A stretch of 63,483 nt of DNA, counting the filler, from Hausera hauseri (taxonomy: Eukaryota), in NCBI GenBank assembly GCA_046269625.1. It is 11 parts of 11 records of this genome, joined end to end, with 100 filler letters (N's around TTAATTAATTAA, not from the genome) between each part and the next. Parts side by side here need not be neighbours in the genome. Positions count along the whole stretch, not along the records: positions 38,412 to 43,174 come from JBJURY010445357.1; 10 more parts are not named here. One strand, given 5' to 3'. The position numbers and the translations under genes are program-made. Positions within the stretch are counted from its first letter, which is position 1; every line of letters begins with the position of its first letter. Below are positions 26,314 to 54,605 of the stretch, piece after piece. The notes under the pieces are model-generated. The model made no database searches and was not told the origin of the DNA. It saw only the letters and a list, made by a program, of their open reading frames with translations.

Positions 26314-26649
26314 TGAATAAAGTTCATGTACCATGATTTTTCTTACGACATTTACTGTGAGAACATGGGTAGTGTTGCAGAAAAGAAGAAGGGTGAGGCG
26401 ATGCGGTACCACGGGCACGGCCGCGCCCAGCTCCCCAGCCGGCAAATCCCTTGTATTTCAAATATGAGTTATCAATGAGGAGCAGACGTTCCAGAATTTA
26501 AATGAATGAATATAGGAATGGTTATCATAATTACCTCGTGTTGTATTGTCTGAACTGGTCAAGCAATACGGGGTAGGAGTCGAAATGCATGACGTTGGTG
26601 AGAAGTTTGACGGAAAACTAATGGAACAGTATGAGTTGTATGTGTGTTT

Positions 26650-26900
26650 CGAGTTGTATGTAATAAATTGATTGTACCACTTGAAAATTTGAGGAAGAGA
26701 TATTTGTCGCTTATCAGCATCACAAGAAGATTTGTATTTCATCATAAAAGATAAGTTGCGCTGTAACTCAGTGAGTAAATATTCTGGAGTAAAAATATTT
26801 AATGGTGGACTTGATGCAGTTCCATGAATCATCAACAGTAGCGTCTGTAACGTACTTCCATTAACCCTATATCGCTCTTCCAGTTGATTAGCAAGAAATG
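26650..26900 (-). pseudogene. DUF547-like C-terminal fragment fused in frame to the dynein remnant
   Basis: HGTASSPPLNIFTPEYLLTELQ...DKRQISLPQIFKWY matches the CGA.SCPP...YT...L...L....V.LSKIF.WY pattern of DUF547. Confidence 0.55.
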
Positions 26901-26949
26901 GTACTGAATTTTTCAAATCAAAATCGCAAAATGTTACATCTGGAATTAC

Positions 26950-29900
26950 ATCTGATTTTATAAATTGCGCAGATACATCTTCTCGGTAAAACGCCAAAAG
27001 AGCATCGGGATTTTGAAATGCTCCCAGCCAATAACACGTCGTTTTATCCTTGTTAATTTGAAGAAGTTTTTCAATATGCTGATATTTGCTCAATAAAGAA
27101 CTCAGTCAATCAATGGTAGCATATCCTTCGTATCCTGTAGGATTTAAAAGAAACCTTTTCCATGGCAAAGGTACTTCGTTTTTCAAAAGTAAAATTATAA
27201 CAGATAAATCAGAATTAATCAATAAAGTGCTAAGATCGTTAGTAAGCACCTTCTTCATTTTCTGCACAAATGAAGAAACTTCCATAAAAATTTTCTGATA
27301 TCCCTTCAATTCTCGAATCATGAAAGCCGTGTAAAATGAACTGTTGTTTACTTTCTTTATCTTTTCTTGAATGTTGTCGACTGTAGACTTCGGAAGTTTA
27401 TTTAACAGACTCTTTGACAATTCAAATAATTCGTTTTCAATTTTTGATATATCCGTTTGAATATCAGATTGTCGTTTGCCATGGAAAGCATTTTTTATTT
27501 GAGCTATTTTATCTGTCACTGATCTTTCTGTATTAACTTTAGTCGAAGATGCAGATAACAAATGGCATGATTCAGAACTTTCAAATTGAAACGGAGAAAT
27601 AGCCCTGAAGGCTCGTTTGACATCGGCTACCTTAGGATTAGCTGCAAGTAGTATTGCCGGACAATGATATTTAATTTTTGGAAATTTAAATTCTTTCTTC
27701 ACGGAATTGGAAATCATCCGAGAATCTATGATAGCACTTATTGATGTCCGGTCCTGTCCAGATGTTATTATGCTGCCGTAGACTATGCCGGTCAGAAAAG
27801 ATCTTGTCATACTCCAGCAAACTGACGGTTTAGAATCGAACCAAGTGCAAATATTATTGGCGGCTTCCATAGCAAGCATGGGATTTGAAACGGATTCGAT
27901 AACACCAGCATTGTGGAAACCAATGGAAGGAAGTGCACACATGGATCGGATTATTGACATCAGTAGGCAAAGGTTATGGATAACTGGTAAAATATCTGGA
28001 GTCAGCTTGTCTAATTTACTTGCCACATTCCAACAGATTTTCGGTTGAATCATCAGCAGTTGGTCAATGGAAGATAAATCAATTGTAATAAAAATAAGAA
28101 GTCCCATATTAGCGTGAGAGTTTGACAATGGAGATTTAATGAATAAGTCTTCTTCGGAAGAGATTTCGTTTTTTAGTTGATTAAAGAATGTTTTCAAAGA
28201 GGTACTCAAAGAATCATTGACCTTAAAATTAAGAGACTTTGCTTGACTCCTTTTCTGAAGTTGTTGTAAAAGATCTGTTACATCACAATTATCGGTTTTG
28301 TATTTAATGAGTATTGCAGTGTTTTCAGTCGTCGAATCAAGCGCCAATTTGACATAAGATGTTGAAACACTTCCTCCAAATCTTAAATTGAGAGTTGACT
28401 GAATAAACCAGTAGCATGTCTGCATTATTCTGTCTGGTCGAATAACCCTCAGTAAACACAGCTTTTGAAAAGGCGTCAGTAAGATTTTAAACAATTTTTC
28501 GATCACATTTGACAACTCTGGATTGTCACTTTCAAACAGCAATTTCCATTGGTACTCTTTTGAATCCTTGTACATATTCTCAAGCATATCCTAGAAACAT
28601 GGAAATGCCGTGCAGAGAAGTTTAACATTAAATAACTGTTCCTCAGTTAACCAATCAAAAGGCTTTTTGGAACTTGAACTTTTACTTTCTGCTTGTTTCA
28701 TGAAATCCGGATTTATTTTTTGAACGACACTCAATGGAGATAATAAGAAATCGTCATAAATTGGGTCAATGGTAGAAAGTGTCTTTTGAATCTCAATAGA
28801 CAGCAACAGACAAAACGTGAATTTAAGATCATTATTCATGGATAACAGTGCATATTGACTAGTTTTCTTTGTCGGCTTGTCTATAATCGTTTTATTTGAT
28901 AGCCGATCCGAAGATTCAATCAACGAATCAAATAAACTAATGTATTTATCAAAGTCAATAAGATAATCTGGTTGAACTCTGTTCACTTTTGATGCCATCT
29001 GGAAACATGTAGCGAATCTGACAGCAATTGCTTGGTAGTTTTTGATGGATTTCTTGTTTGTTTCGTAGATAAATTCTTTTTGTTGGAAGTTAGTGCTTAT
29101 TTCTTCGTAAAGTTTCAAGTAACGAATAATTGTCCGGCAATGTTAGATGTGCTTAATACTTCTTACATTATTACTCAAATCATCAAGTGTCTGTTCTTCC
29201 AGCTTAAAAAGCTTTCTTTTCATACGATCCTTTTCTTCAAGGATATTTTGTCTTTCCAAATAAATATTCGGTTTAGCTTTCTCGATAAATCGACCCAAAA
29301 ATTCATTGACCAACACAGGCATTAACATATTAAATGAGACAAGAAACGTCTGAGAAATTAGAATATCAGGAACATCGCATGCCGGTGCACAAGTGTGTAA
29401 AAATAGTTGGAAATTTTGATTGCATGCCAACTCTTGTCCATTCGACAAAATTAATTTAAACGGACATTTTTCCTCAAAAAAATTATGTTTATTTCTCAGA
29501 ATCTGTCTCATAGTTCCATCGTGAATGAGTTGTTGAATATCACAGTCAGTTACAATGACGCAACTTCCATTTGCAAGACAATTTTCCAAATTGCTACTAA
29601 TTTCAGAATATGGAAATGACACAACATTGTAGTTAATCAAATATCTCTTTAGCCAACTGATTACACGTCTCGATGGATCGGATAACAGGAGCCAATTTCG
29701 AAGAAGGCTCTCGTTCATAATGAAACAGACATTATCAATTTCATCTTCGCTGTCGGGCAAATTGAAAGCTTCAAGTCGGGCTGTTTCCATAGGTGTATGA
29801 AGGAAATTGGCAATATCCATTCGGGTACACATTAATGTCTCCGATATTAATTCGCTCTTCTTTATGAGCTCAATACAATGCTGTAAGAATTGCGATTTCT

Positions 29901-30210
29901 GTTCATAGTTAAGTGGACCACAATAGGCTAGGTATGCGGATGAAATAAGACATTTTACGAAATTTGTGCGTTTGTCATGATACGTCTTTAAAAGAAATTT
30001 CCATTTCTTTTCCATGGGTTTAATGTTTTCTAATAACCATTGTCCTAATTCCAATCGTTCTGTCAAAGCCTTTAAATCCGTCTCAACAATTGATCGATCA
30101 CCAATTAGAGTATTATATTCGGTTTCCAGCTGTAGACATTCTTGCTTTAAATGTATCAATTCTTCAACATCCCACTTCTGACACCAATTTGTGGGTAGTG
30201 ATAAATCCAT
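26950..30210 (-). pseudogene. Divergent dynein heavy chain C-terminal part (stalk CC2, AAA5, AAA6, C-domain), intronless, three in-frame stops
   Basis: CLISSAYLAYCGP, WLLLSDP...SWLK, LENCLANG, NFQLFLHT, FQKLCLLRVIRPDR, GIVYGSIITSGQDR, VPLPW, YWLGAFQNP. Four ORFs in one frame, separated by TAA (29143), TAG (28591) and TGA (27106). Confidence 0.85.
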
Positions 30211-30426
30211 TAAATCGTAGTAAAAAACCCAAAATTACAATAAAATTCCAAGAAAAAACGAAATAGTACGACGATAATATATGTTCTATTTTGAATCAAA
30301 TTTACAGATTAATTATCCATACAAAAATCAATTTCAATATTTACATTTATACATGTAATGTTCACCGCCTGATAAATGGGAATATCGAAAGGTAGGAAGT
30401 GAAATGATTGATTTGAGAAATGTCGA

Positions 30427-35290: not shown

Positions 35291-36560
35291 TTTCTCCCCC
35301 TTTTGAAAAAGGATTTGGTCCTCCGGATCACTCTGGGTACTGGCATCAATAAAACTAAGGTTTCTGGGTCTGATAGTCAGTGTTGCATCATTTATCGGGT
35401 TCATCCAGTGGCATAGTCGTTGGGTACGGTCATCGTAGGTATAGGAGAAGTGATAGTAGACTGATGGTTGTCGACAGTATGGACATGAAATACCATTTTA
35501 AAAAGTCATTTGAAGAGCATATTCCGGGTTGATTGATTTGAGAGACTGAGAGCGAAGTTTGTTGAAGCAGGTTGCACACAGTTGGTGATTACATTGAAAT
35601 TGAACAACCGTTATTCTTTCAGTAAGACATATAGTACATTCGTAGGTAGGTAGTTGATCATAATAAAGAGATTGTAATGTTGCCCATAAATCAGGAGGAG
35701 CTAGATCAAATATAAGGTCAATTGGACATTTATTAAAGACTGGGAACCAGTCTTCTTGTAAGGATATTGGTAGTGGTGGACTATACGAACTAGTTGGTGT
35801 AGGTACTATTGTGGGTACCTGCACTGGCAATTCAGGCGATGATCTAGTAATTCGTTCAGGTTGATAACGTGGATGTGGTATTGAAGATGGCTGTCGTAGA
35901 AGAGTCATAACATTTATATGGGGTAAAGGTACTTGAAAGGTAATTGGTGGTGATCTAGTTATCGTAGAAGGATTAAATCGATGAATTGGAAATTCGATTC
36001 GGATTGATGACTGTTGCTCTAGTCGAAAGTATCTTGTTGGAAGTATTTGGGGAATTGGCGTATTGGTTATAGTAAGAAGAGCTCTTCTAGGATGGTGGAA
36101 ATATGAGTAAATAAATTGAGGGCAGAAATAACATATGCTACAGATTAAGTATTGATGGTGGGATTCTAGTTGATAGCAATGAGCACAGTACTCAGCATTA
36201 CAACAACTAAATTGATAGGCTATTCTATTAGGTTTTTGACATAAGCAACACATGTGTAATTGAAAATGTGGAATAGAGAAAGGGGTTGATACATTCCGGG
36301 TGTAATAGTAGGTAACGTGGTCAGATGGTTCAATAACTTCGAAGGTTTGGGCATTTAGTAATGATTGATCAGCGTGGGATGGATATGCATCATGTCGGAT
36401 GCAATATTTGATTTCATATGTACATACGGGACAATAAGGTGTAGGATGAGCTTGTGATCGTATTCGATCTATACAAAATGAACAAACCATATGCAGGCAC
36501 GGTGTTAATCTGTACACCTCGCTGAGGATTACTCTGCAGAACAATTATTCTGGAAGATCT
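35285..36560 (-). pseudogene. Multi-RING-finger protein, last ORF of the LTR element
   Basis: PCLHMVCSFC...CPVC, CCLC...CCNAEYCAHC...CSIC and CTIC...CNHQLCATC. After one in-frame TAA (35498) the frame continues ISCPYCRQ...PEDQILFQKGEKC* through the PPT. Confidence 0.8.
35291..35304 (-). promoter_or_regulatory. Polypurine tract (AAAAGGGGGAGAAA)
   Basis: Pure purine run immediately 5' of TGTTAG on the minus strand. Confidence 0.8.
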
Positions 36561-36574
36561 AAAAATAAGTAGAA

Positions 36575-37612
36575 TTAACTAAAATTTAACTCAATTACAT
36601 TATGATTTTTATTCTCAGCATTTTCAATGTACAATGAGTTTGACAAAAGGTTAAACAATTGTCTAAGTAGATGGGCTTGTACTAATGGTGAAGTATATGT
36701 AGGAATAGTGATGGTATGTAGTAATTGTTCACTTAGACGAATTATGAGCATTGGGTCTGAGGAAAAACTTGTAGCGATAGGGTGGCGACTAAGATTGAAG
36801 AAACCATTAGTAAGGGTAGTAGGCAGTTTCAGTGAACATAATAGTAAGTCAAGTTGTGTCGTTATAATGAATTTATATTTTAACATATCTTGTATGTAGG
36901 GTAAAAAATCATCGTTGTCTATTTTATTTAGGGTAAGATCATCAGTTATACCTGTAAAAGGTGTTCTCCAATCTACGACTTTATGTCGGGGGTACATTTG
37001 CTGCTGTAATAATATTTCACCTTTAAAGTCTAATATGGCGATATCAATAATGGTTTGGTTGATGGTTGTTAGGTTAGGTTGAGTGGTAACATACGTATAG
37101 GCTACAAAGGCGAATAGGGGTTCTAAATCAGGTATAGTTAATCCTTCTGGTGTCGAGGAATATTTATTTATTGATAGAATTGATCTAGGTATTTGATTCA
37201 AATGATCATAACTCTCATCATGAGTGTATACGAGTTTTGGTTGGGTTATTTCCACAGCAAATAGACAATTGTTTGAAGAAGAAATAGTAAAAGATAACAA
37301 TTCAACAGGGGGAATTGTGATAATTGCACTAGAATCGTTAAATAGTTCATAATCAATATCAAGAATAGGATCCTCGAAGTTGGCATTGACAGTTAATTTG
37401 CCAGAAATGAGATGAATGGCAATAATATCGAATTTCTTCTGTTTATCGGTAAGAATTAGTTGGGATAATGAATTGGTAACGCTAGCCGATGTTTGCTGTA
37501 TATACATCTGTCTGGGATAAAGTTGTAATTTCTCAGATTTTAAATCATTTGGGATAGCTGTCTGGTTGGAAAAATTATGATGGAATCGATTTGCACTCAC
37601 ATAGGACGCCAT
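36575..37612 (-). CDS. Unknown N-terminal domain plus catalytically degenerate DEDDh exonuclease fold (REX4/ISG20-like)
   Basis: IAILDFKGEILL...P...VVDWRTPFTGI...IQDMLKYKFII...LSEQLL follows VSIVN..GEVLY...P...VTDYRT.VSGI...LLKGRILV...LAEELL. The expected acidic and His catalytic residues are absent. Confidence 0.7.
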   Translation of the reverse strand: MASYVSANRFHHNFSNQTAIPNDLKSEKLQLYPRQMYIQQTSASVTNSLSQLILTDKQKKFDIIAIHLISGKLTVNANFEDPILDIDYELFNDSSAIITIPPVELLSFTISSSNNCLFAVEITQPKLVYTHDESYDHLNQIPRSILSINKYSSTPEGLTIPDLEPLFAFVAYTYVTTQPNLTTINQTIIDIAILDFKGEILLQQQMYPRHKVVDWRTPFTGITDDLTLNKIDNDDFLPYIQDMLKYKFIITTQLDLLLCSLKLPTTLTNGFFNLSRHPIATSFSSDPMLIIRLSEQLLHTITIPTYTSPLVQAHLLRQLFNLLSNSLYIENAENKNHNVIELNFS

Positions 37613-37708
37613 TGCGTCATAAAAATGTTGCGAATCAATATAAGGCTCTATTTTTAGTCTTAATACAAAACATAATGATAAAAATTTATTAACATTAAAT
37701 GAATATCA

Positions 37709-38311
37709 TCAGACAGAATAACAATACAACATTGAATATAGATTATATACAGTGATTAAAGGATATAATATGTCAAAATTCATACATATACGACAGGATA
37801 AATCAATAGACGGATGATGGAAGTATTCAAGAACAAAAGTTATAACAAAATATATACACGCGAGTAGAGAGTTAGTTAAGTATGTAATGTATATTTGTAA
37901 TACTATCTCTCGGCGCATTATGACCAGTAATCGTTCGCGTTCGTAGGGACTGGTCATAGGATCGTGCATCAGGATGTCATTGATGGTCAGGTTTCGATAA
38001 TTATGAGTCTCTGGTCGAATATCTGGTCGCCGCATCAGGATAGGGATTGCCCCATAGGTTCGGGTTAAAAGCGCAGTTATAAGAGGAGTCTCTTCGTATA
38101 ATCCATGAGCATAATTTACATCGAATAAATAAGTTCCATTGTCGAATTTTTTATTTAGGAAGGTTTCCAATAGTAGGAATCGTTTGAAGACTATTGCATG
38201 ATGTAAAGGTGTACTACGTAATTGGGTTTGGAAAATAGCTTGAAATACTTTGTTGTCGTAGGCATAATCGAATATCAGGATTGCCAAGTTATGTCGACCA
38301 TGTCGTATGGC
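37709..38311 (-). CDS. Ankyrin-repeat protein (5' partial)
   Basis: AIRHG, STPLHHAI, DVN....EETPLITAL, ILMRRPDI. Near-identical to the C-terminal part of 62767-63390. Confidence 0.8.
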   Translation of the reverse strand, partial: AIRHGRHNLAILIFDYAYDNKVFQAIFQTQLRSTPLHHAIVFKRFLLLETFLNKKFDNGTYLFDVNYAHGLYEETPLITALLTRTYGAIPILMRRPDIRPETHNYRNLTINDILMHDPMTSPYERERLLVIMRREIVLQIYITYLTNSLLACIYFVITFVLEYFHHPSIDLSCRICMNFDILYPLITVYNLYSMLYCYSV

Positions 38312-38411: not shown

Positions 38412-38413
38412 AT

Positions 38414-41190
38414 AGAGTTGACGTAAAAGTCACTAAAGCCCAGACATTACTATCCACTCTAGAAGTAAACCCGAAATTAAAGAGAGCAACTCGGAGTCTA
38501 GAACGTACGAAGGATAAAATTAGCTTAGTAACGATTTACCGACTTAGAGAAAAACCGATTAGTGATCGAAGTAATGTCGATTTAGAAATATTGGGTATAG
38601 TCCTAACAGATATCCCTCCCTTAATGGAGATGATTAAACTTACGTTCGCCGTACCTAGACGATATACGAATTTAGAGAATCGTATTAAATTAGTAAATAA
38701 AATACGAGCACAGATTTATGAGTTGAGGAACCGTATTATTTTTCCAAGTCACGAGGATACTCAATATGTAATAAAAGCTTGTATCGTAGAGTTAGACGAG
38801 TACAAGGACGAGTTTAGTTATGTCGGACGAGTTATGAATTTCCTAAAAGGACCGGATGATGCGTTAGAAGATGACTACAAGATGCTAGATAAAGCCATAA
38901 TGGCGAAACCGGTAATCGCAAATCAATTATCGGAATGGTCCGAACTAGTAATGCGACTAACCAGATTGTTAGAAGATTGTAAAACAGAATTTCCGCAAAG
39001 CGATCCAACAGTGAAGAAGCAATTAGAGGAAAGTGCGCACAATTTAGCCACGTTGCGAATAGAAATAGACATCCGTACTCTATTTGAAGCGCTACGACAA
39101 CTAAAATTTATGGAACAGGAACGAGAAGCATCGACAATGGATGAAATCTACAAATTGATCGAAGAAACAAATTTTACGGAGAAACGGAATATGATTCACG
39201 ACGTAAATTAAAGTTACGGATTGTCCGGCTAGACGGGATTCAATATATAACCGGGAAACCAATCGACGAAATTTCTGTACCAGATATTGAAATCTTGGAT
39301 ATTTGCGCCGGATATCGAGATATGTTAACAGATGCAATAAGGTTTCTACACAAACCTAAAGAATGGATGGCCGGATCAGACCAGAACCTCCATACCAAGT
39401 TGATAGAAATCGGAAACGACCCACATTTTAGCTTTCAGGAGCACAAGTTTTTAGAGAAATTGTTGGATGCAATGGACCAGGATTCAAAGGTTATAAATGG
39501 GTTGTATGAGCTAGCCTATCTATTAGTGGAAATGGCAGAAATCAGTGATGAACAGATGAGGCAGTTGATGCCCAAATTACAGAAAGTAGAAGAAACATGT
39601 ATCAAAACGAAACAAAGGGAGACAAGGTTAGATGAAATAACAAAAGAGCTAGAAGTCTATCGGAACAAATATGCTCTTACCGAATCAGAGATTAAGAATA
39701 AACGAGAATTTGTACAAAGATGGCAAAAGGATGTGATTCTTGAATTGACATATTGTCACCAAAAAGGACTTATCGACTCTAACGAATTCGGTGAATTACT
39801 GAAAATGATCCAGTATGCCTGTGGGAATGGAAGAGGATTCCGAACTACGCAAATGAAAGAAATACAACCCAGATTAAAGGAAATTCGGGAAAACATTCAT
39901 AGAGCCAATACAACGTTAGTGGACTACCGATTTCCAGATGTCGGAAACGAACCCGAATGGGATGCATACTTCGATGAGATACTCGCCGGGAAGGCTACGA
40001 CTCCAGTACAACTGAACGAAATAAAAACAGGTCCGCAAAACAGAAGGTTCAACGTGGAGATGCTACTGGATTCAGCGCTAACTGAAAAGGATTTCATTGA
40101 GTTAATTAACGTAAATATTACTGAAAATAAACTTCGACAACTTATCCCTACTCTAACTAAATTATCTAGCGAAAGCACGATCTATTGTACGGTGCCGAAA
40201 CTTTTGATAAGGAAGTACGCTAAAATTTTGAGGGCTAAACCTGCGATGACGATAAAAGTAATGGTGTCATCCGAATGGATGGACGAAACAGAATGCGAGT
40301 TGCCTACATATTCCTACGTAAAGGACGTAAGAGAATGGCTAGTAGACAATAGCGGGACAAATAAGTTAAATTACAGATTTTACTTTAAAAGTAGAATATT
40401 AGATGACTTGGAACAATTGAGAGACGTCGGGATTATTCCCGACGAAACAAATCGGATAGTGGCAGTAATAGTTAACGAACAGACAAAAGAAGAAGCTACA
40501 CGTAAAACTAAATCAGAAAAATGCGAAGGACAAATCACGGGAGTCCGAGACGCCGCCCTGTATTTTGAGTATTTACAAACAGACGAAGATAAGGAACAAT
40601 ACGATATAAACTTAGTACCACTTAGTGAATCAATCACTAAAGGTTTGAGACCGAAACGCCCAGTAGGTCGGCCTAGAAAAGTGCGAGAAGAAATAGATTA
40701 CAACGGAGAGTTAATTAGAGAATTGAGGCAGATGTCGATCCCAACTCTTAGCACAGATAATGAAGAATTAAGCGAATTAATGAAAAATTTAATACGAATT
40801 GTGAATTATTCTAGTTTCCGAGGAGATATGTTGGATGATAAAGAAAAGATCATTTTCGATGCACCCAAAATGATTCGAAACTTGCGTTTTAAACTATCGA
40901 AAAGCAATTTAACTGATGAATCGGTAATGGAAAAGATCATGGTGGAAAACACGAATGAAGAATTGAGAAAAGTATTGCTATACTTAGCTATCAAAATAAA
41001 TCCTAATCAAGAGAGTGAAATCAATCGGGCTATAAGCTTAGCGTGGAGAGCAGCAAAAAGAATGCCTTGCAAAGTAAATTGGGTAAGACTATTTGACAAG
41101 GAAGAGGACAAACGAAATAATAATAAACTCGACGATATGTTGCGTAACCTGACAACATCAGACGTTGGAGGTCGAAAAAACGAATCAAAT
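38414..41190 (+). pseudogene. Large polyprotein region: helical/coiled-coil repeats, ubiquitin-like domain, AT-hook; one frameshift near 39205
   Basis: Open from the contig start. Ubl at 40246-40473 (VKDVREWL...YRFYFKSRILDDLEQLRDVGI), AT-hook RPVGRPRK at ~40657-40680. Continues in frame into the glycoprotein. Confidence 0.65.
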
Positions 41191-43000
41191 TTGCTAATAA
41201 GCTTTCTCACCTTAATAATGCTAATAAAGCACATAAGCGCGATAACCGTATATGATTGTGATAAGGTTAAGTTAGGACAGAGATATTCCTTAATTGATTT
41301 AGAAGTATGCGAGGATGCCAGACCGCACAAACTAGAAACAATATAGAAAAGTTACTTCCTGTATCAACAATAAGAAATGATATCGTTGGATGGAATGGAA
41401 TGTATGCTGAAAAGATCGCGTAGTATTTTTCACTGTGGGTTGATTCATGGACACTCATCTATAATTAAACCAATGACTCCATTAATTCCAATGAACTTAG
41501 AACGACAACACTGCAAACAAGCTAGAGAAAGAGGAAGAATACAATGGGATAGCATGCAATTGGAAATGTAACCCGGAAAAATAATTAGAGCATACAAAGT
41601 AGTAGCTGGAAGGTTGGATATGTATAACGGATATTGTAATGAAGCAGAGTACTATACCGGAAAAGGTTTAGAAACGAAAGTTGTGGTTGTGGATTTCTAT
41701 GAATCAGAAATGCAATCACAGAAGGTGATGTTTCATAGCGTCACTAAATTATACACGGAGAATCAAAAATGTCATTTACAAGACGGAATATATGCTTTTA
41801 GGAGCTCAGTTGCAATATGGGAACCTCCTTCTGCGAGAAATTGTAATTTTATTAAAATCAAAGAACTTAAGTTCAACGAGACTACAGGGACGAGATATGT
41901 GGACAAATCAGAAACTAACTCAAGAACACGCGAAGATGTATCGGAACACCCTAACCTACTATATTAATCTCGGATCCACGTGGACTAAAATTCATAAAAA
42001 AGAGATGATGACCCGTTGTGATGTAGTAATGTTCGCCACAAACTATGAAGAATTCTTTGTGGCTGAAAGGGAAATAAACGCAAAAACTTACAAATTGGAA
42101 ACGCAAGATGTTCGAATCGACGATTACCTGAAAAATAGAGACGATTACTTCTACTACAAAGGACAAGTTGGAATAACGGAATTACACCACAAAATGATAA
42201 TGGATGACTATAAATTGGATACAGAAATCATGAGAACTAAAATGGCTCTTATATATGCAAACCCAGAATTAGCTTCTCCAATAATTTCCATGAGAAAAGG
42301 AATTTTCGGTCGGGTCACAGGCCAAGTACTGCTAACATATGAATGTGAAAAGAGAGAAGTTCTTATCAACGTAGAAGAAAAACGTTGTATCCAGGAACTC
42401 CCTGTTATCAATCAGAATATTCCGAGATTATCTACGCCGTTGACGACAGTGTTGTTGGATAACGTGACACAACCAACCATTCTGAAAGATTGTAAGACGA
42501 GCTTAGGAGAACCAATGTTTAGACGTAGTGAAACAAATTGGGTTAGTTTACCTAATGGAGGTATTACTGCCGCTCCCAACAAGCTAACAGGGATAAATCT
42601 TGCAAAAGGAATTACAGACGATAAATTTCAAGACACCTCGTCAAAAGATATATATAGGCCGAGGGTAATCGAGGCCTTTAGACAATTTCTTGCCTTTCCA
42701 CGACAACGAACACATGAGCTAAATTGAGCTATGGCGTCGGTAGTAGACGACACCTGATATCAGGCTAAATGGAAATCATTACTTGGCGTAAACCATTATC
42801 AGAGGGTGACAACCGAAATACTGTATAAAATTTGGGGAAGATTTTTAATTTTTGGACAAGCCGCATCAGGATTTTTAGCAATGCAGTAATAAACGGATAC
42901 GAAGTATTTACGCTAACCGGATTTTCATGTAAAATTCTGACTGCAATCATAACGCCTTTTGGAAAATTTTTAAAAGCATACGAAGAGAGTAAATGGAAAT
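41191..43000 (+). pseudogene. Chuvirus (Jingchuvirales)-like envelope glycoprotein, disrupted
   Basis: Signal, then VYDC...SLIDLEVC, C...RSIFHCG..GHSS, W.PP....C, MAL...NP......KGIFGRVTGQVLLTYEC, CIQELPV......TP.T.VL, IWGRFLIFGQAASG and INGY....GFS. These follow the order I recall for chuviral G proteins. Several in-frame stops and at least two frameshifts. Confidence 0.8.
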
Positions 43001-43174
43001 CGGACGTAGAACGCCATGTAGGTTATTATAATTGTAAACGAAGAAGGAGACCGATATTCATACGGAAGCGGGAGTCTACAAAACCGAATATACGAAGAAA
43101 TAATTCAGATGATGACGAGCCTAAGGGAGGAGAAGCATTCTCAGGGATGAATAGACATAAGATGTACTCGGTCG

Positions 43175-43274: not shown

Positions 43275-44966
43275 CACAACCCATTGTGGTTTTACCACTT
43301 CATCAACATGTTTGTTTCTGTCAATAGGGCTGACTCCTTCCGGTACAGACATATGGGTGTGGGCTACACAACCGGAACATACGTCGGATGCATAACGGAA
43401 TCGAATGACACATTCTCATGCAGTGTGTATGACTGGACGAAGAGCGACATCACTGTGCCCGGCAGCAAATGTACGTATCTTACGAGGACATACTATCAAT
43501 CGAATTACTCGCTGATTAGTGAGATGCGTGGTACTGGAGACTTCAACATTACTAACAATACCTGGTATACAGTGGTAAGCAAATCATTGGGTGGAAGCAT
43601 TCGATGGGTGCCAACGCATCTTATTGGATCTTTGACAGTGACAGGAGTGAGTTCTTGTGTGTACCTGAATGACACGTTTATTGGTGTAGTCACTCTCACT
43701 TTCGATATCAACGCTATCCAACAATTCATGTCTGCTCATACCAGCGCGTCGGTAGATGTGTCATTTTTGGTTGATGCCCTAGGCTGGATTGTTGCAACCA
43801 CGCACCATGCGCCGTACGCCACCATGACAATAATACCAGCCAATGACACGCGGCCAGTTCCGTCAAACTGTATACGTTCGCATGAGAGTAATGGGCCTGT
43901 ATACCAATACTGTCGCGCCTCAGTATTTGCGTTTCCATATGCACCACTGAACGAGCTGGCTTTGCATTATTCTAATTACACGATGAATGGCACTGATGAC
44001 AACTCTGTGCTACTTCGATTAGGTGGTAATGATTTCTTTGTCTTTGTCAATGACATGCTTCAACTTGACGAGACAATGCCGCGGTGGAAGGTGATTGTGT
44101 TCATTCCGTCAACGAACGTGGATGGTGGGCTGACGTCTGGTAAGGCTGTGCCGATCTCCATTGTGTGTGCTTGTGTTGTTGTCATTGTTGTTGTTTTTGC
44201 ACTGCTTGCGTTCGTACTAACACCTCGAGGTCGGGACAATAAAAATGCTCCGAAGGATGAATCAGCACCCTTCACAATTGTGTTCACTGGTGTGGAGCAC
44301 AGCACTGAGCTATGGACTGAGGTTCCTGATTCGATGGCTGCCGCCATTAAACTACATCATTCTATAATCCGTGAGCTGATTGTGAAGCATCACGGGTACG
44401 AGGTGAAGACGATTGGTGACTCATTCATGATTGCATTTGTGCATGCTGCTGATGCTGTGTTGTTTGCTGCAGATCTTCAGACGACTTTCCTTGCTGATGA
44501 GCGATGGGACGTGTTGATAGATGTTATGTACAGAAGGTTTGCAATGGAGGGTAAGAAGGCATGTGTTGATGGTTCAAATGCGCTTGATGCCTTGACAGCC
44601 AAACTGAATATTGAGGAGTATGCATCGGGATGGCATGGGTTGCGTGTGTGTGTTGGGGTGAACTGTGGATTTGGTGAGGTCAAGAAGGATGTGACGACAC
44701 AAGGCTACGACTACTATGGTCCTGTTGTGAACACTGCCGCTCGTGTTGAGGCGATTGCTCACGGTGGGCAGGTGTTGATCACTCGAGCTGTGAAGGAGCA
44801 CGTTGTCGGAAGCACAAAGAATGTCGAGGCTTTTGACATAATCAATTCTGCAATGTCGCTTGGATCCGTTGCCCTTCGTGGTGTTCCTGAACCTGTGGAT
44901 GTTTACCAGTTGGACATCATCTCTGGACGAGTGTTTCCACCATTAGTGACTGTTACCGCATTCTGA
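43275..44966 (+). CDS. Kinetoplastid-type receptor adenylate cyclase with dCache-like ectodomain (5' partial)
   Basis: APKD..APFTIVFTGVEHSTELW, YEVKTIGDSFMIA, WHGLRVCVG, YDYYGPVVNTAARVE..AHGGQVL. TM precedes the cyclase domain. Intronless and higher in GC than the other contigs. Confidence 0.9.
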   Translation, partial: HNPLWFYHFINMFVSVNRADSFRYRHMGVGYTTGTYVGCITESNDTFSCSVYDWTKSDITVPGSKCTYLTRTYYQSNYSLISEMRGTGDFNITNNTWYTVVSKSLGGSIRWVPTHLIGSLTVTGVSSCVYLNDTFIGVVTLTFDINAIQQFMSAHTSASVDVSFLVDALGWIVATTHHAPYATMTIIPANDTRPVPSNCIRSHESNGPVYQYCRASVFAFPYAPLNELALHYSNYTMNGTDDNSVLLRLGGNDFFVFVNDMLQLDETMPRWKVIVFIPSTNVDGGLTSGKAVPISIVCACVVVIVVVFALLAFVLTPRGRDNKNAPKDESAPFTIVFTGVEHSTELWTEVPDSMAAAIKLHHSIIRELIVKHHGYEVKTIGDSFMIAFVHAADAVLFAADLQTTFLADERWDVLIDVMYRRFAMEGKKACVDGSNALDALTAKLNIEEYASGWHGLRVCVGVNCGFGEVKKDVTTQGYDYYGPVVNTAARVEAIAHGGQVLITRAVKEHVVGSTKNVEAFDIINSAMSLGSVALRGVPEPVDVYQLDIISGRVFPPLVTVTAF

Positions 44967-46247
44967 GGATGTGGCTATTTGGCTGATTGCTATTATGTCC
45001 TTGCGAATTGAATTTATTGCGAGACGTGCAACAGCGTCTTCGGTCGTGGACGGACCGGGGATACCCTGGTGCCGCGCGGAGGTAAAAATATTGCTAGTAT
45101 TTATTAGATGTGTTTTACTGGCTTGACGGTATGGGCAGCACATGTTGATTAGTATATACTGATTATAATGCGACGAGTGATGTCATGGTTGGTTATTGCT
45201 CAGTGACCGTATTACATTGATTTATTAGGGGTGCGTCTTTTGTCGAGGCGCGCTGTGGGGAATGACCATCTGCTGTCCAAGTGGGGCATTATGAGTGCGA
45301 GGATAGAGACTTGCTAGGCATACTATATTCGTCGTCTGGGGTTGTTGTGTATAATGAGTATATGAATAACGAGTGAGCTATTATGTTACATTGAAGTTAG
45401 AGTAATTTAGGAACCATGAAGGTTATCATATGAGGTATTTGTGCTGCTCTTGAGATATTTGTGTCTTATGCAGCTGATTCAGGTACTTTTTTAGGAACAG
45501 TATTACATTACTGTGATTAGCTGAAACTTGTTTTTGTTTAGAGGGATCTGTTTTTTTCCAGCTGCTTTTATGATGTACACTTACCAGCATCCTCTGGTGA
45601 TGCTAAGGTAGTTCAAGAATATCCAGATGAGCTTTTGTATGGGAGTGGTTGTGTTCTGACAGGAGATGGCTGCATATCATGTGAGAACCGTATGCTTGTC
45701 ATTATGTGTTGTGGTGACTAAATTCCATTCTGGCATGTATAATCTTTGCTTCTCCACTATGTTATCACTTATGATTCCTTTGCTTGTTTTGTTATTTAAT
45801 TTACTCTACAAGTGGATCACTGCATATAGCACGTCACTAGTTGAATACCAGACATCTCTTATTCATCTTTATGCTTGCCCTGTGTGGTTTCATGCTTGGA
45901 CACACGTTGTTATAGTTGACTTGCTGTGTGTTTATGGACATGAGCACATCTACAGGTAAGTGGTGTGGCACCCGTTTTGAGGGATTGTGCCTATGACAGC
46001 TGTTTTCAGCCTGGCGTGAGCAACACATCGACTGTGTCTCTGAGCTACATACGGTCAAAGCTGCACCTGAATGCTGACATGCAAGTGTGTTTGCTCCCGT
46101 GCATTGACTAACTACAGATACGTCCAAACGGTGTTCGTTGTTGTGACTGTACAGGACAGTCAGTGTGTGAGATGCGATGCCATGAAAACACAGAAGCGCA
46201 TTACTAGGTCAGCGGCCTGAATACGTGCACATCTGATGCGTTGTCAG

Positions 46248-47564
46248 ATGAAAGAGAAGACAGCTTTTGAGTTGTCCGTCTGAAAAGTGAGACTCAATAC
46301 TGTATTGGCCGTGAGTGTCTGTGCGTTGCTTATTGCTGTCAGTTCCCTGGTTCCCATGATCATTACCCTAGACACATTCACTGTGACTATGCAACCTTCG
46401 ATGTCAAGAGGCGCTTATGCAACATCGAGTGTGTTTCTCACGTACATAGAATATTATTTTTTGTTCCATCCCTTTCAATTTTTAACCAGTCGGGCTAACT
46501 CACTGTCGAGTCCGCCGCATCAACAGGAATGGCGAGACCCCGCACACAACCCATTGTGGTTTTACCACTTCATCAACATGTTTGTTTCTGCCAATAGGGC
46601 TGACTCCTTCCGGTACAGCCATATGGGTGTGGGCTACACAACCGGAACATACGTCGGATGCATAACGGAATCGAATGACACATTCTCATGTAGTGTGTAT
46701 GACTGGACGAACAGCGACATCACTGTGCCCGGCAGCAAATGTACGTATCTTACGAGGACATACTATCAGTCGAATTACTCGCTGATTAGTGAGGTGCGTG
46801 GTACTGGAGACTTCAACATTACTAACAATACCTGGTATACAGTGGTAAGCAAATCATTGAGTGGAAGCACTCGATGGATGCCATTGTATCTCATTGGACA
46901 TTTTGCGGTTGTGGGAGTGAGTGCTGGTGTGTACCTTGATGACACGTTTACTGGCGTACTCACTCTCAGTTTCGATATCAACGCTATCCGACAATTTATG
47001 TCTGCTCATAACAGCGCGTCAGTCGCTGTGTCATTTTTGGTTGATGCCCTAGGCTGGATTATTGCAACCACGCACCATGCGCCGCACGCCACCATGACAA
47101 TAATACCAGCCGATGTCACGCAGCCAGTTCAGTCAAACTGTATACGTTCGCATGAGAGTAATGGGCCTGTATACCAATACTGTCGCGCCTCAGTATTTAC
47201 GTTTCCATATGCACCACTGAACGAGCTGGCTTTACATTATTCTAATTATATGAGGAATGGCACTGGTGACAACTCTGTGCTACTTCGATTAGGTGGTAAT
47301 GATTTTTTTGTCTTTGTCAATGACATGCGTCAAGTTGACGACGCAATGCCGCGGTGGAAGATGATTGTGTTCATTCCGTCAACGAACGTGGATGGTGGGC
47401 TGACGTCTGGTAAGGTTGTGCCGATCTCCATTGTGTGTGCTTGTGTCGTTGTTATTGTTGTTATCATCGTCGTCATGGTAACTGGACGTGTTGGACCGCC
47501 AACTAGTGTCCAACCCCTTAGCCCGCTTCCAAGCAGGATGGGTGTTGCTATGCGGGACTCCTGA
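46248..47564 (+). pseudogene. Paralogous dCache receptor, truncated after the second TM (no cyclase domain)
   Basis: Highly similar to 43275-44190 from 46544 to ~47460. The ATG at 46248 is followed by an in-frame TGA at 46281. N-terminal TM present. Confidence 0.8.
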
Positions 47565-48044
47565 GGCAAATGGCGATGAAAATGTCTGAAGTAGCTGCTG
47601 AGTCTGTTCAGCTTTCTTAACACGAAATGGGTCTTCAAAGTCCTTGTTGGACAGCGCGACCCGTGCGCTGCTGTGGTGAGGCTGGCTGTTATACTGCGAG
47701 CTCTGTGTGCTCGGAGACGAGGATGAAATAGTCGACGCACCTGCAGGATAACCCAGGCCGTGGGCTGGAAGTTTATCAAACGAACGCCGAATGTAGCAAT
47801 GGGAACTGGCCTGCCGCTCTCCTGTAGACAGCAAAGGCGTGGGGGAACCTGGGATATCTTCAGTGTCTTTTGTAGAAGACTGGTGTTGTTGATGATGCTG
47901 CGAGGGATTGCGTTTCATAATGACCTACACTTCAGACTGGCACCTGATGATGATAATAAAAACATTTTCCTAACTGAAAACCTCAGGTAATTCATATTTT
48001 CGTAAAGGTAAATTGAAAACAAATGTTAAAAAAGGATAACAAAC

Positions 48045-48308
48045 CTTCATGCTATAGGCTCTGCGATTGGACGGCTGTACTATAACCTTGACCCCTGACT
48101 TCACAAGTTTCTTAATCTGTTGAGGGGAAAGTGGTGCTCGCCGCTCCCAAACATTCACTGTTTCTCTCCGGACAGCCATAACTGGTTGGTCGCTGGCCCT
48201 GCGTATATGAATACTGGGAAATGCTGACATAATTTTTCCTTTAAGGCAAGCCTTGCTAAATATTGGCAGCACATTCTGTTTAACTGGTGCATAAAGCTGG
48301 GAAACCAT
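48045..48308 (-). CDS. AASS: Alpha-aminoadipic semialdehyde synthase, first coding exon
   Basis: Mitochondrial-type presequence, then [20 protein letters not shown]...[17 protein letters not shown], then a GT donor at 48043-48044. Confidence 0.9.
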
Positions 48309-48341
48309 ATTTCTGACTATCCTTTACTGAATGCTTTGCAA

Positions 48342-48441: not shown

Positions 48442-49222
48442 AATTCTAAGCCATTTTGCGGTTTTAGTGGTTTTCGTGCTTTGTTTGATATGGGTAGGGA
48501 AGTCGATCAAGTTTTGATTTATTTGGCACGATTCTTAGCGCATGCCATTGGGAACAAAGGAACAATTTCCATTTTAATAGGCGAAATTGAGTAATATTTT
48601 GACGTAGTACATGAAAAATAGACTAGGTATATACAAAGGAACAAAGTAGCGCATTAATTTGTTTTTGTTTCACAAATTATTACCTGAGCACCATCAACTA
48701 AAAGGGCCAAGGGCAAAACTCGCGGTGGGCACCACACTAACCCCAAGTGTCTAAGCTGAAAACTATAATGCAAAGAAAGAAAGAAAGGAAACCGCAAAAA
48801 GAAACAGTGTGATTTGTCTATGAGGTTTTTATGTGTAACAGACGTTGTATTCCCTCAATATTTAGTTGTCTAATGTAGGTAATTAATGTCACTGACTTAT
48901 GATGTCTCATTGCTTTTGTGTCTGGCTGCTGGAGTAGTTTGGGAAAAACAATATCAGATTTTGCACTGTTGAGTGTTATGTCCTATTAATGTAAGACAGA
49001 AAAAGGAAAAGAAGTGACTGAAGGTGAATGATTGAAGTTGTCTAGGAAAATACCAGAAGGTAATGAGTTGGAAGAAGTAGGAACAGATTTATGAATAGAA
49101 ATATAATCTGGATTAGTAAGAGGAATAAGATTGGAAGGTGACGTAGATGCAGAAACAGAAACGGGGACAGAAGGAGACGTGGGAGCGAGAAAGGAAGTTG
49201 CTGTTTTAATTGTAAAAGTGTC

Positions 49223-51690
49223 TTAAAGGTAAAAAGCTGCTTTTACGTTGCTAATATGAACCGCGAATTCTTTGCCATCTTTAAGGATTATAGAGTTGTG
49301 AGAATGTACTTGGATTAGTTTATAGGGTCTAAAATACTGTGGTTGAAAACAGCACGGCGCTTGATTTTTCAGCCAAATGAATTTTGTGGAATATATTACA
49401 TCTGGTAAATATGCCTTGTCATTGTGTAACACCTCAAATACCAGTCTTTGCTGACTGTAACGAAGTGGTTTTGTGCTGCTCGTATTGTTTCATCTGTAGG
49501 TTTGTCTTCTAAAATGGCCAGTTTGAACAATTACCGTATAGGAGCACCAAATAGGGCTTCGGTAAATGAGCATCCTGTAGAAGTGGATGAAGTGTTCTGC
49601 CAGCCAAGCAGAATACACGGAAGGAGAGTTGTCCAGTTTACATTGGACTATACTGGAAGTTTAAGCGATATTTTCAGTGTTCGGTGGAACCGCTGAAGAA
49701 GGTCATACGATTGAGGATGGTAAGATGTTGTATGAATATGACTGATTCCCAGTCGGTTAACTAAGGATTCAAACAGATTGGATTCGAATTGAGGACCTTG
49801 GTCCGAGATAATGAAACAAGCAGATCGAAACCTACTAATCCACGTACGAATGAAAGCATCCGCTATTGTGTCAGTACTTTTGCTCCTCAGAGATATGGCT
49901 TTTGGCCATCGCCAAGAACGATCCAGCATGCTCAGAATGAATTGATGACCGTTGTCTAGTGGAAAAGGACCGACGAGATTCAAAACGAATTCAAAACGCG
50001 ATGTGCGGGGACGTAGTGATTTTAAATGCTTTGTGATTTTATTTTTCTGACAAGCCACACACTCCTTAACCCATGATTGCACATCAGAACGCATTGACGG
50101 ACAAAGTACCTGTCGTTGAAGTAAGCGAAAAGTGGCCTTGGCACCATTGTAGTGTAATGAATGTACGCTATCAAATGCTTGTTTTTGCAAAGATGGAGCA
50201 AGAATTATTTTGGATTATCCTGGTTTGGAAGGGTTTAATGCCACGCTGTCAACGATGTTGCAAGACTTGAAAAAATTAAGAATATCTGAAGGTGGCGGGT
50301 TTTCTTGAAGTTTTGCTGAGTAAAAAATTTGATGTAGATAAAAAATGGCAACTAAATTATTAACACTGTTGACATATTTGATATCGAAACTAAATGTTGA
50401 CAAGTATGATACTTGTGGCACTTGACGTCTGGATTTGTATTTCATAGACATAATATTGACTAAAGCCTTGCGATCAGTTGGGATAACAAAACTGCGAGCT
50501 GTGAGTAAGTGGTAGAAGTGTTTTAAGGCCAGACCTATTGCCAATAGTTCTCGATCGAATGTGACATAACTAGTTTCTGGTTTCGCTAGCTTTGTAGAGA
50601 AAAATTCGAGTGGTTGGTTTTCACCTTTGTATAACTGATGTAACACAGCGCCTTGTGAGGTAGTTGAAGCGTCTGTGGTAAGGATAAGTTCAGCGTCAGG
50701 TTTAGTTAATGCCAGAATTTCTATGGTTTTGAGACCTTCGCGCAATTTATCGAACTTACCAACCAATTTAATTGTCCATTAAATTGACTGATGTTTTTTT
50801 CCACTTCTCAAATGTGCGAAAGATGTCATGAGTTTCGAACAGTATGGAACGTATTTGTGGATGAAGTGTAAAGTTCCTAAAAAGCTCCTCATTTCTGTTG
50901 TGCATTTTGGTAGTTGTATGTTTTTGAGAGCTTCCACACAGTCTGGCTGAGGAGAATGTCCATTTGCTCAAATGACGTGTCCGAGAAAGTTAATACGCTT
51001 TTGGATGAAAAGGCATTTTTCAAAATTAATCTGGAGATTATGGTGGTTAATTTGTTGGGAAATAGAACGAAGGTATTTAGCGTGCTGTTTGGTAGAAGAC
51101 GAAAGGTTTAAGATATCTTCAATGTATGGATGCGCGAAAGTGAAATCCGAGGGAACGAAATCAATGTGACGTTGGAAGGTCTGCGCGGAGTTGCATAAAC
51201 GAAAAGGCATATAAATATATTCATGCAGGCCCAAAGGTGTTGTAACAGCAGTTTTCTTGATATCATCTAATGCTACAGTAATTTGATGATATGCCTTGAA
51301 TAAATCTATAGTTGAATATAGTGTAGTCGAGTTGAACCGGTGCAGGATATCCTTAATTTGTGGTAAAGGATATGCATCCATTATAGTTAAAGTGTTGAGC
51401 TGACGGTAATCGCTGCATGGTATAAAAGATTCAACCTTTTGCACAACGTGCAAAGGCGAAGATCACGATGATTCATATCTGCGTACAATGCGGGCACATT
51501 CAATGTCTAGAAATTCAGCTTCAACAGTTTACCTGCGACGAGGTGACATTGGGCGTACCTTTTAACGAGTAATTCTTTGGTGTTGCGTTATGATGTAGTG
51601 AAAAGTACTGTTTACAGGCGTGAAAGTTCGGTCCTTCTGGATTAAGTGAGGACATGGAGTGTTGATGTATTGCCGCAGACATGCAGGCAA
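49223..51690 (-). mobile_element. Degenerate Gypsy pol (RT, RNase H, integrase)
   Basis: DYRQLN...DAYPLP, DLFKAYHQI, MPFRLCNSAQTFQR, LTTDAS, FDRELLAI, H..H...C..C, SDQGPQFES, TTSYHPQ. A PPT-like GGGG run with TGTGG at ~48736-48746 may mark the 3' LTR start. Confidence 0.92.
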
Positions 51691-51921
51691 TTATGAGAAA
51701 TTGNNNNNNNNNNTGAATGGTGCTGTTGACTCAGTATGTGTAGTTGCAAGTGATGTTTGCGAGTTATTTGCTGGTATGAAATCAAATGGAGTTTTGGTGT
51801 AAGATAGTAGTATTAAGGCTTCAATATTTATTAATACTGTCGCCATTATTCATTTATGTACAAAATCATTTTTGTTTATAACACAAAGAAAAAGAACAAC
51901 AAATTATCATTATCATTAAAC

Positions 51922-52375
51922 TTAAGTGGTTTTATTCATATCACCGAAGTCAGATTATTCGCGTTCATTTCGTATTTCACTGACGGAAAATAATCCCAAT
52001 TGTTCCGGCGATATTACACTGAATTCAGCCTCTTTACACGAAAGAAAAATGATTTGTGCCATTTCATTGCCTTTCAAAATATCATACAATAGTCCAGAAT
52101 GATTTTCCAGCAATACTCTAATTTCACTACAGAAGTCTGAATCAATTATTCCGCCAACAACAGTCAGTCCAAGGTTTTCCAATCCGCTTTTCGAAGTGAG
52201 TTGACAGTAGTAACCGTATGGAATCGTTAATCGAATACCAGTCGTTATACATTTGATTGTTCTGTCCACTACTGTCGTATTGATTTTAGAAAACACATCA
52301 CACCCTGCACGTGTTTGCTATAACACGTCTCAGTACAGGGGCACTTTCACCTGTTAAAATAATCTTTACATCATT
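51922..52375 (-). pseudogene. dut: Trimeric dUTPase, intronless, disrupted
   Basis: AGCDV (motif 1), SKSGL (2), GIIDSDF (3), MAQIIF (4). Motif 5 is broken by a stop (RE*SDFG), and there is a frameshift near the N-terminus. Confidence 0.85.
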
Positions 52376-53535
52376 CACTATCACAATTCTTATACTAAAA
52401 ACAAATTACATGTATATTTATATTTGTTAATTGGGTTCATACAGAGGAAAAATAAAACAACAATAACAAAATTTATTAATAATTAAAATATGCTTCAGGT
52501 AAGCGCCAAATTGGGCTTTTGGCACCATCTTTTTCTCTATATTCTTGCAATTCAATGTCGAAACATTAAATCTTCAGGTATATTAGACATTTCTCGACCA
52601 ATAAAATGAAACTGTTTAGTTTTTGTGGCTGGTAAAACGATGGATTGCTGCTGTAAGGATTTTTCATTCAACTTTAAATCGAAGTTTACTTGAGGTAAAG
52701 CATCAGTAAGTTTCTTAATATCTTCACAAAACAGCTTTTTTACATGATAACTGTACTTCGTTGCATTCGAGGACACTGGATAATTCAATGGAACCTGAAC
52801 TGGCGTTTGAAGAAAATACATTTCATACTTTCGAAAAAGTCGTTTCAGGAAAAATTTCGGTGTTTGACGCTATGACTTTAATTTTCGTTTGCGTATTCCA
52901 TGATCAATCATTCCCACTTTCCTTTTTAATAACGGATTTGCTGATTGCTGGACAGGTTCTGCTTTCAGCTATTTGATATTAGAATTGTCTTTTTGTCACC
53001 AAACAACTAATCGGAACTCTCATCATACTTATCACCATTGAGTAGTATCGATTTATCGTCTTCCATAGTAATGTCTGAATGAACATGAGAATGATATTTA
53101 TAGTTTATAGTGCAATATATATTATTTTGATTTACTGAAACATTTATTTTTTTTCTAATTTGATTAATAGTCGTTGATGAATAGTCATATGTACAGATTG
53201 ATTGATGGACAGTGTAAGTGAGTCTACCATTACTGATTGAATTTGGTTGCTGACAATTCCGAATGGCAGTAGTTTACTGTTGTCAGCTGTGATTGGTTTG
53301 TGACAACCCATAATACGACGCTTTCCAGATTGAAATATTAAGCACGTAAAAATATGGATATTTTAGGAAATGCTCCCTCGTCTTCCATTGATTAAAAGGT
53401 AAAATATATTAATACACTCTATAATATGTTCGCGATAGTCAATATTAAGTAACATTATGAAACACTGTTTATACTGCGGCTATTTATGTGTGTGGCATGA
53501 TTATAAACAAAGCATGTGACGAAAGGTTTTATTAT

Positions 53536-53635: not shown

Positions 53636-53805
53636 CTTCTGTTAGATGACATGGCAGCTAGATATAAAGTGGAACAAACATTATCAGAGGCACTAAAAAC
53701 AATAGGGCTTAAAGACTCAATAGGATACCAGTCGTTTTTGTATCCGAAAGTTAAAGACACGACAAAAATTATTTCTTTCTTATTTGAAATGTTACCCAAA
53801 GTTGA
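53636..53805 (+). pseudogene. CCDC22: CCDC22-like N-terminal fragment
   Basis: MAARYKV...LSEALKTIG....IGYQSFLYP...DT..IISFLFEMLPK parallels MSARFR....LAQAC..LG....GYQNFLYP...D...LLLFL.E.LP. Confidence 0.65.
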
Positions 53806-54129
53806 TCAATATACTTTAGCAGCTGTACTTGGCGCTTGTTTGCATGGTCGTAAAAGCGGTTTTGGACTTGCTCTCAGTTCGTATAATCACCTAATTTATA
53901 AGTATCGTTGTGAAATATCCAATTACATGTTCACAATTCTTCTTAAAGTCGCTGTTCAATGTCAGTTTGGAAATTCCACAGTAATAGAAACTGTATTTGG
54001 TCTGTAAACAGCAGCATATCAACCATGTACTTCTCTTTATATAAATTCTCAAGAAACATGTCTTACTCCACCATAGGGTCCACCTTCATCGCCATCTGCA
54101 ACTGCGGTTTCTCTTTTGGAAAAAGAATA

Positions 54130-54250
54130 TGTTGATATTATAGACTCAACAGCTCGAAAAGTCGGGATTACTGTTACCAATTCCCTCAGTAAGTCCTTTG
54201 ACATTTTGTTTTCTAAAACAAGTTTTGTGCACTGGCACGTTGGAGAAGGA
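54130..54250 (+). pseudogene. Divergent alpha-tubulin C-terminal fragment
   Basis: KSFDILFSKTSFVHWHVGEG versus [20 protein letters not shown]. Confidence 0.65.
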
Positions 54251-54605
54251 CCTTTGAAGAGGAACCCGATTACCCCGAAATTTGGGACCTGCCGTTGCAA
54301 GGCTGAGGTCCCGGCCGCCAACTCTGCTCCATTGGGTAGGACGGTGCCTTTTACGGCCGCGCCACACCACGCCCCCGGGTATATCACCTCTCCCCAGTCC
54401 ACCTTACTTTTTTAAATAACAAATATATACACACATACACAGCATTACACTTAAATACTGCAGCCATTCATAACTTCATCTCTACCTTACTCCACTCCTC
54501 TGATTTCTACCTTAACACAATGGATGTTTAGTACCCCTCGCTGGAACTCTACAATTTTCCTCAACCCACATCTGTTTTTATATTCTCTTCCGTATCCATG
54601 GTGGC

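Follow-up and report, generated by a model that had tools for sequence, protein, structure and literature searches.

The contig at positions 38412–43174 of the window, i.e., of the whole 63,483-nt stretch of DNA analyzed here, is very probably an internal part, now decayed, of a flatworm LTR retroelement of a Burro-like Ty3/Gypsy type, for which gag, accessory domains, env, and pol are predicted, in this order, in one polyprotein. The window consists of small contigs joined by N-spacers, and the finding is confined to this one contig. A first-pass annotation had described a chuvirus-type glycoprotein (G) at the end of a polyprotein with ubiquitin-like (Ubl) and AT-hook modules, and had attributed it to the env-bearing polyprotein of a large retroelement or to an unknown endogenous virus. 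The retroelement is upheld, with a chuvirus/Monjiviricetes-type G in frame, whereas the RNA virus is unsupported. Because neither gag, pol, nor LTR is found on the 4.8-kb contig, the gag-env-pol order is taken from relatives that are 24–33% identical. The features, all on the + strand, are as follows.

38412..43174, +, whole contig: part of the interior of a single decayed copy of a repeat present in many copies; bounded on both sides by the limits of assembly and not by those of the element
38414..39211, +, frame A: 265 codons, running off the contig edge; rich in charged residues and helical in appearance; matches no family
39145..41346, +, frame B: 733 aa between two stops; a charged and helical stretch, then the helix+Ubl module, the AT-hook, a helical domain, the signal peptide, and the beginning of G
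40090..40473, +, helix+Ubl module: short helical domain and ubiquitin-like domain (40246–40473); conserved
40657..40680, +, AT-hook motif: Pfam AT_hook E 0.025, below the cut-off
40750..41100, +, five-helix domain: occupies the position at which three relatives carry a Bcl-2-like domain; five helices from a fold model, pLDDT 60
41188..41238, +, internal signal peptide: a hydrophobic core, with cleavage predicted ahead of mature G; aligns with the same segment in five relatives
41239..41967, +, N-terminal half of the G ectodomain: Monjiviricetes/gB-type class III fusion protein; three in-frame stops; PF24664 E 1.1e-13
41966..42892, +, C-terminal half of the G ectodomain: lies beyond a frame shift; contains four stops and the beginning of a membrane anchor that is partly missing; PF24664 E 2.4e-24
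42895..43173, +, post-membrane tail: no stop before the contig ends; the corresponding stretch of relatives leads to a protease; weak match to P0017 951–1000

Reading frames, copies, and host

Frame A, which has its stop at 39209 and differs in frame from frame B, is likely part of the same polyprotein, severed by a frame shift apparently absent from other copies. Frame B is free of stops for 681 codons, through the Ubl, AT-hook, and helical domain, into a hydrophobic segment starting at 41188 (the only strongly hydrophobic one in the coding frames of the contig) and the start of G. When the contig was shuffled 200 times, the longest run free of stops averaged 83 codons and never exceeded 135, so these frames are not due to chance. 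Of the earlier claim of at least 900 codons without a stop, the stop-free fusion into G stands at 681 codons, whereas 924 codons (265 + 659) are reached only across the frame shift. This shift is probably a lesion of the present copy, since 12 contig ends in run X1 depart from the contig sequence at the A/B shift and continue in related sequence in another register. A programmed frameshift at ~39200 was considered and judged unlikely: no slippery heptamer is evident by eye, and the shift is seemingly absent from other copies, among which no listed contig bridges the site. None of the fetched relatives matches frame A or the initial 300 residues of frame B, frame B has no match among 5,208 candidate proteins of 1,284–3,665 aa, which is weak evidence, and Pfam gives no Gag match in the 924 codons upstream of G, the contig being open at its upstream end.

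The contig belongs to a large, diverged, high-copy repeat family. In run X1, 15,247 contig pieces fall on the contig (845 at 99% identity or more, 2,217 at 95–99%, 5,511 at 90–95%, and 6,674 under 90%), and this run is possibly the source sample, so that the copy count represents one data set. The pieces span 80–100% identity, the differences are mostly transitions, and the tail beyond ~43090 differs among copies (loose ends). The sequencing-run search placed the stretch in one run, with no RNA run among those listed, and no related loci were found in the viral contigs or metagenome contigs searched. The host would be a flatworm, judging from a CBP gene on another contig of the window, which falls on the flatworm side of its branch (SH-aLRT 98) in a tree without a triclad. 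Another contig in the window looks protist-derived.

The glycoprotein and the domains upstream of it

When read with X at the stops, both halves of G match the Pfam family Monjiviricetes_fusion (PF24664; profile positions 22–227 of 653, E 1.1e-13, and 262–557, E 2.4e-24), which bears out the chuvirus-type assignment by profile match, the check suggested at first pass. Among the 14 cysteine columns conserved in eight relatives, 12 are kept; the best matches to the C-terminal half of G are 31–33% identical, and no solved glycoprotein was matched in the G profile search. The internal signal peptide proposed to join the upstream frame to G, with no stop between them, is likewise confirmed by the hydrophobic segment from 41188. 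G had also been called near-complete; both halves are indeed recognized by PF24664, but it carries seven stops (41344, 41371, 41569, 42725, 42755, 42887, and 42890) and one frame shift near 41965, and its membrane anchor is partly missing. Contigs of other copies have extra letters where the anchor is expected. The present copy is dead and cannot make G.

Upstream of G, the Ubl alone is below the Pfam cut-off (E 0.018), and its identification draws on relatives. P0001 matches the helix+Ubl stretch at E 3e-6 and, in a second comparison, at 2.6e-8, and a profile of the four relatives to which the module is common, with the contig left out, finds it in the contig at 2.8e-10. Against the PDB, a five-row helix+Ubl profile has ISG15 (E 0.0024) and the UBL of ubiquilin (E 0.005) as its leading matches, the top 12 of its 23 matches being of the ubiquitin fold, and PF11976, the family named for the Burro Ubl, matches one of the five Ubl rows (E 0.011). 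On these profile comparisons, the Ubl assignment is judged firm once relatives are included, in agreement with the first-pass annotation. The domain would be an integral Ubl, as opposed to a conjugatable ubiquitin, because it is without a C-terminal diglycine. The AT-hook module fares less clearly: the motif is seen at 40657–40680 and likewise in four relatives, but alone it is below the Pfam cut-off. Of 124 fetched proteins, four carry a similar GRP-core motif ahead of G (P0018 and P0136, which form one cluster, P0019, and P0027), and in all four G lies before a protease.

The helical domain that follows is possibly Bcl-2-like. Three relatives (P0026, P0016, and P0037) have a Bcl-2-like domain just before the signal peptide, as recognized in P0026 by Pfam (E 0.00096) and in P0016 by a profile of P0026 and P0037 (2.9e-6), and the contig domain aligns partially with this slot by eye. 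The contig domain does not match the Bcl-2 profiles. Its fold model (pLDDT 60) has no Foldseek match at E<=0.001 in PDB or BFVD and no clear fold match by VIA (best Z 5.0), and its comparison with Mcl-1 and Bcl-xL (E 5, TM ~0.2) is noise. The Bcl-xL matches of profile A6 (E 0.07) cover the C-terminal motif of the relatives and hence say nothing on the contig domain. A reading of the motif at 41074 as BH1-like was not supported by profiles. A single-sequence fold of the whole Ubl-to-helical region reached pLDDT 34, and the whole-protein alignments A3 and A7 were left out, as the upstream domains are misaligned in them.

Order of domains and alternative explanations

Part of G was used for a HMMER search of 1.84 billion proteins, which gave 120 matches, and 28 of the 120, including 12 of the best 13, were scanned for domains. 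Proteins of at least 1,200 aa account for 8 of the 13 best matches and 4 of the 107 others. A retropepsin follows G in 9 of the 12 scanned best relatives (8 at E<=0.001, and P0021 at 0.0018), often with RT, RNase H, and integrase thereafter, whereas Pol precedes G in none of the 12; the remaining three terminate within G or shortly beyond it. P0001 (4,029 aa; cluster of 20), found by a separate search, comprises the Ubl module, G (1114–1752), proteases, RT, RNase H, and integrase, and is matched by the contig at both the Ubl module and G. Signs of Gag upstream of G, in frame, are Retrotrans_gag in P0028 and zf-CCHC in P0027, and all seven relatives having RT show the Gypsy-type order and a Y(I/L)DD motif. 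After the integrase, a second protein composed of signal peptide, ectodomain, and anchor is present in five of five relatives extending that far; a profile of this ectodomain has no match in the six frames of the contig. Furthermore, the phylogeny suggested at first pass was built by a quick tree search on the C-terminal half of G (98 of 125 rows; 27 were left out as short matches or as three cluster duplicates). In this tree the contig G falls, on a long branch (1.62), into an unstarred group of 15 rows (SH-aLRT 91) that includes nine G-before-protease proteins and is separate from both G-after-pol proteins.

On the evidence of these relatives, G is probably located mid-polyprotein (gag-env-pol) and not terminally. 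The earlier placement of G at the end of the polyprotein is accordingly modified: nine of 12 relatives continue into a protease, and the contig ends 114 codons past the juxtamembrane motif (42833). The distance from this motif to the protease motif is 129–369 residues in 10 of 13 relatives, and since the contig ends before a protease could start in any of the 10 relatives measured, the absence of Pol on it is uninformative.

This bears directly on an alternative within the same lineage, in which pol is lost or separate and G is the last part of a Gag-accessory-Env protein, either non-autonomous or with pol in its own frame, or in which translation from the methionine at 41137 yields G by itself as well. 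The lack of a protease on the contig and the variable tail beyond ~43090 are in keeping with lost or separate pol, and the position of the methionine 17 codons ahead of the hydrophobic core, together with the annotation of several relatives as proteins beginning 145–160 residues ahead of G, with G made alone; however, the contig is too short to reach a protease at the spacing of any relative measured, its tail is open to the contig end, and the integrase end of the same polyprotein type is carried by another contig, which leaves this alternative improbable. Less probable again is a terminal G after the integrase, as in an Anakin-type BEL/Pao element or in a Gypsy element with the usual gag-pol-env order. 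Chuvirus-like G is known in such elements (PMC7642597), and P0071 and P0040 have G after pol, but these two are distant (E 2e-6 and 1e-11, respectively) and lie elsewhere in the G tree, and the ~920 codons upstream of G show no match to RT, RNase H, or integrase, which largely refutes this arrangement.

Equally remote is an endogenized negative-strand RNA virus, chuvirus-like or otherwise, that has an unusual polyprotein, to which the membership of G in the Monjiviricetes fusion family and the many G-sized proteins (600–800 aa) among the weaker matches (41 in ranks 31–120) would point. Against it, the thousands of diverged contig pieces represent repeat amplification, the best relatives are fused to retroelement enzymes, and no nucleoprotein or RdRp family match is found on the contig. 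The element is read here as most likely Ty3/Gypsy and not BEL/Pao or an unknown RNA virus.

Proposed mechanism and comparison with known systems

For the intact Burro-like element, a mechanism can be inferred from the topology in the light of what is generally known of signal-peptide polyproteins and of class III fusogens. The chain would begin in the cytosol with Gag and the accessory domains; the internal signal peptide would thread G into the ER, where signal peptidase would free the N-terminus of G; and the membrane anchor would bring the chain back to the cytosol, so that Pol would be made as the tail of Env and then be cut free by the element's own proteases (retropepsins). Equal numbers of Gag, Env, and Pol would in this manner arise on a single membrane, and fusion of the particle with a new cell by G would permit cell-to-cell spread. 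The AT-hook is predicted to bind AT-rich DNA, either cDNA or target chromatin, and the Ubl and the helical, possibly Bcl-2-like, domain are predicted to act on host ubiquitin and cell-death pathways.

A broader proposal, which is tentative and more doubtful than the identification of the element, is that flatworm gag-env-pol elements are true enveloped retroviruses of an uncharacterized design, in which a polyprotein crossing the membrane four times combines a conserved helix+Ubl module with an AT-hook, in many cases a Bcl-2-like domain, a fusogen of class III, and tandem proteases, followed after the integrase by a second membrane protein that would serve as a separate attachment protein. The AT-hook and the post-integrase membrane protein were not found in the portions of the literature searched. 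Were such enveloped particles with a fusogen and a second surface protein real, they would offer a model for retrotransposons turning infectious and for meddling with host ubiquitin and cell-death control. A single broken fragment in itself matters little, its layout being already in print. It adds a divergent (31–33% best G identity) and heavily amplified family, and indicates that an accessory cassette between Gag and Env (helix+Ubl, AT-hook, and Bcl-2-like) is common to a broader set of these elements, with its parts reshuffled among them.

The first-pass annotation did not recognize the combination of Ubl, AT-hook, and G from any described family. This no longer holds, as the layout has been described for Burro/GYPSM1 (PMC6431247) and for GAG-ENV-POL elements (PMC13524379), the AT-hook alone not being found in the parts of these sources consulted. 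According to the Burro section of PMC6431247, which cites Grohme 2018 and Jurka 2007, Burro/GYPSM1 is a planarian giant Gypsy-like LTR element of over 25 kb with a 4,873-aa frame. It has a Ubi2/SUMO-like domain and a BCL2-like motif, its env, which matches mononegavirus fusion glycoproteins, lies in frame between gag and pol, and its accessory domains include MATH, BIR, RING, and ankyrin. The contig shares with it a Ubi/SUMO-like domain upstream of env, a mononegavirus-type env in frame with the upstream polyprotein (681 stop-free codons), a very high copy number, copies decayed by stops and frameshifts, and a flatworm host, as judged for the contig. By contrast, an AT-hook is not mentioned in the Burro section, and the supplements of that paper may mention one; MATH, BIR, and ankyrin domains are not on the 4.8-kb contig, which is likened to Burro by description and not by alignment. 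As for the BCL2-like motif, the helical domain of the contig is in the right slot, with no profile or fold match.

"Ancient errantiviruses" of the GAG-ENV-POL order with an HSV/gB-type ENV have been reported in Platyhelminthes, Nematoda, and Bryozoa (PMC13524379), and the supplement consulted includes nine flatworm elements: six from Schmidtea, two from Prostheceraeus, and one from Macrostomum. The env rows of the six Schmidtea elements resemble, by eye, those of the relatives and the contig in cysteine spacing and motifs. Smed_errantivirus_1 and 2 span ~14.8 kb in this source, which is close to the 4,873-aa frame of Burro, and the two are therefore probably Burro. The contig resembles these elements in its env type, signal peptide, anchor (of which this copy lacks a part), and multi-copy repeat nature, and its closest relatives have env before pol; unlike the intact elements, this copy is broken. 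The word "ubiquitin" is absent from the text of PMC13524379 as consulted, and both "ubiquitin" and "AT-hook" are absent from its seven supplements as searched with long cells truncated.

Two other systems are more remote. Anakin elements, described in PMC7642597 as Pao elements with a chuvirus glycoprotein in mosquitoes, likewise use a chuvirus-like G as the env of an LTR retroelement; however, they are BEL/Pao elements of insect hosts, whereas the contig has no pol upstream of G and its relatives are Gypsy. Jingchuvirales glycoprotein EVEs, which are a stand-alone viral gene or a fossil thereof (PMC10084718), belong to the same Pfam family of G, but the contig G is joined in frame to 681 or more codons ahead of it and has been amplified into a repeat. 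Because its features match both Burro/GYPSM1 and the GAG-ENV-POL gB-type errantiviruses, the contig is regarded as a decayed copy of an already described kind.

C-terminal and post-anchor features of the relatives

Five of the retrieved proteins resembling the env-bearing polyprotein (P0001, P0017, P0019, P0032, and P0136) extend past the integrase, and in all five the C-terminus carries an ectodomain flanked by two further hydrophobic segments. Several of them additionally contain at least two retropepsin domains. In the tail behind the membrane anchor of the chuvirus-type glycoprotein G, YPxL, PSAP, or PPxY-like motifs, of the kinds known as ESCRT late domains, are found in 7 of the 11 relatives with the anchor motif (raw count). 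The record of P0017 (HBK71150.1), a eukaryotic retroelement polyprotein, is labeled as originating from a Flavobacteriaceae metagenome-assembled genome, a label likely attributable to bin contamination.

Other retroelement and possible accessory sequences in the window

14488-15361 (-), on contig 11343-15362: integrase end, decayed, carrying a GPY motif
35498-38311 (-): three consecutive same-strand frames, i.e., ankyrin-like, ISG20/SDN1-like exonuclease (weak match), and RING finger
48442-53535, 53636-58776, and 60145-60523: decayed Gypsy pol fragments of ordinary type

The integrase end displays 29-59% identity, piecewise, to the relatives with gag-env-pol order; beyond it lie a signal-like hydrophobic stretch and further broken coding sequence. 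It probably represents the 3′ terminus of a sibling element and lies on a contig separate from that of the polyprotein. The ankyrin-like frame has an 81% DNA copy at 63148-63385, the exonuclease match is weak (E 0.47), and the RING finger frame is matched at E 3e-7; the three frames may be candidate accessory genes of elements resembling Burro, the giant Gypsy-like LTR retrotransposons of planarians. The ordinary Gypsy pol fragments share a mutual DNA likeness of 64-75%.

Host genes and remaining contigs

7086-11242: 12-base tandem repeat filling the entire contig
20447-24912 (-): CBP/p300, host gene with long exons
26458-30234 (-): dynein heavy chain, host gene with long exons
43275-48341: contig with two receptor-type adenylate/guanylate cyclase frames

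The + strand of the tandem-repeat contig is very T-rich. The top named matches of CBP/p300 are flatworms (61-65%), and a Logan protein matches at 84%. The cyclase contig is richer in GC (46%) and possibly derives from a co-assembled protist, since its cyclases presumably resemble those of kinetoplastids.
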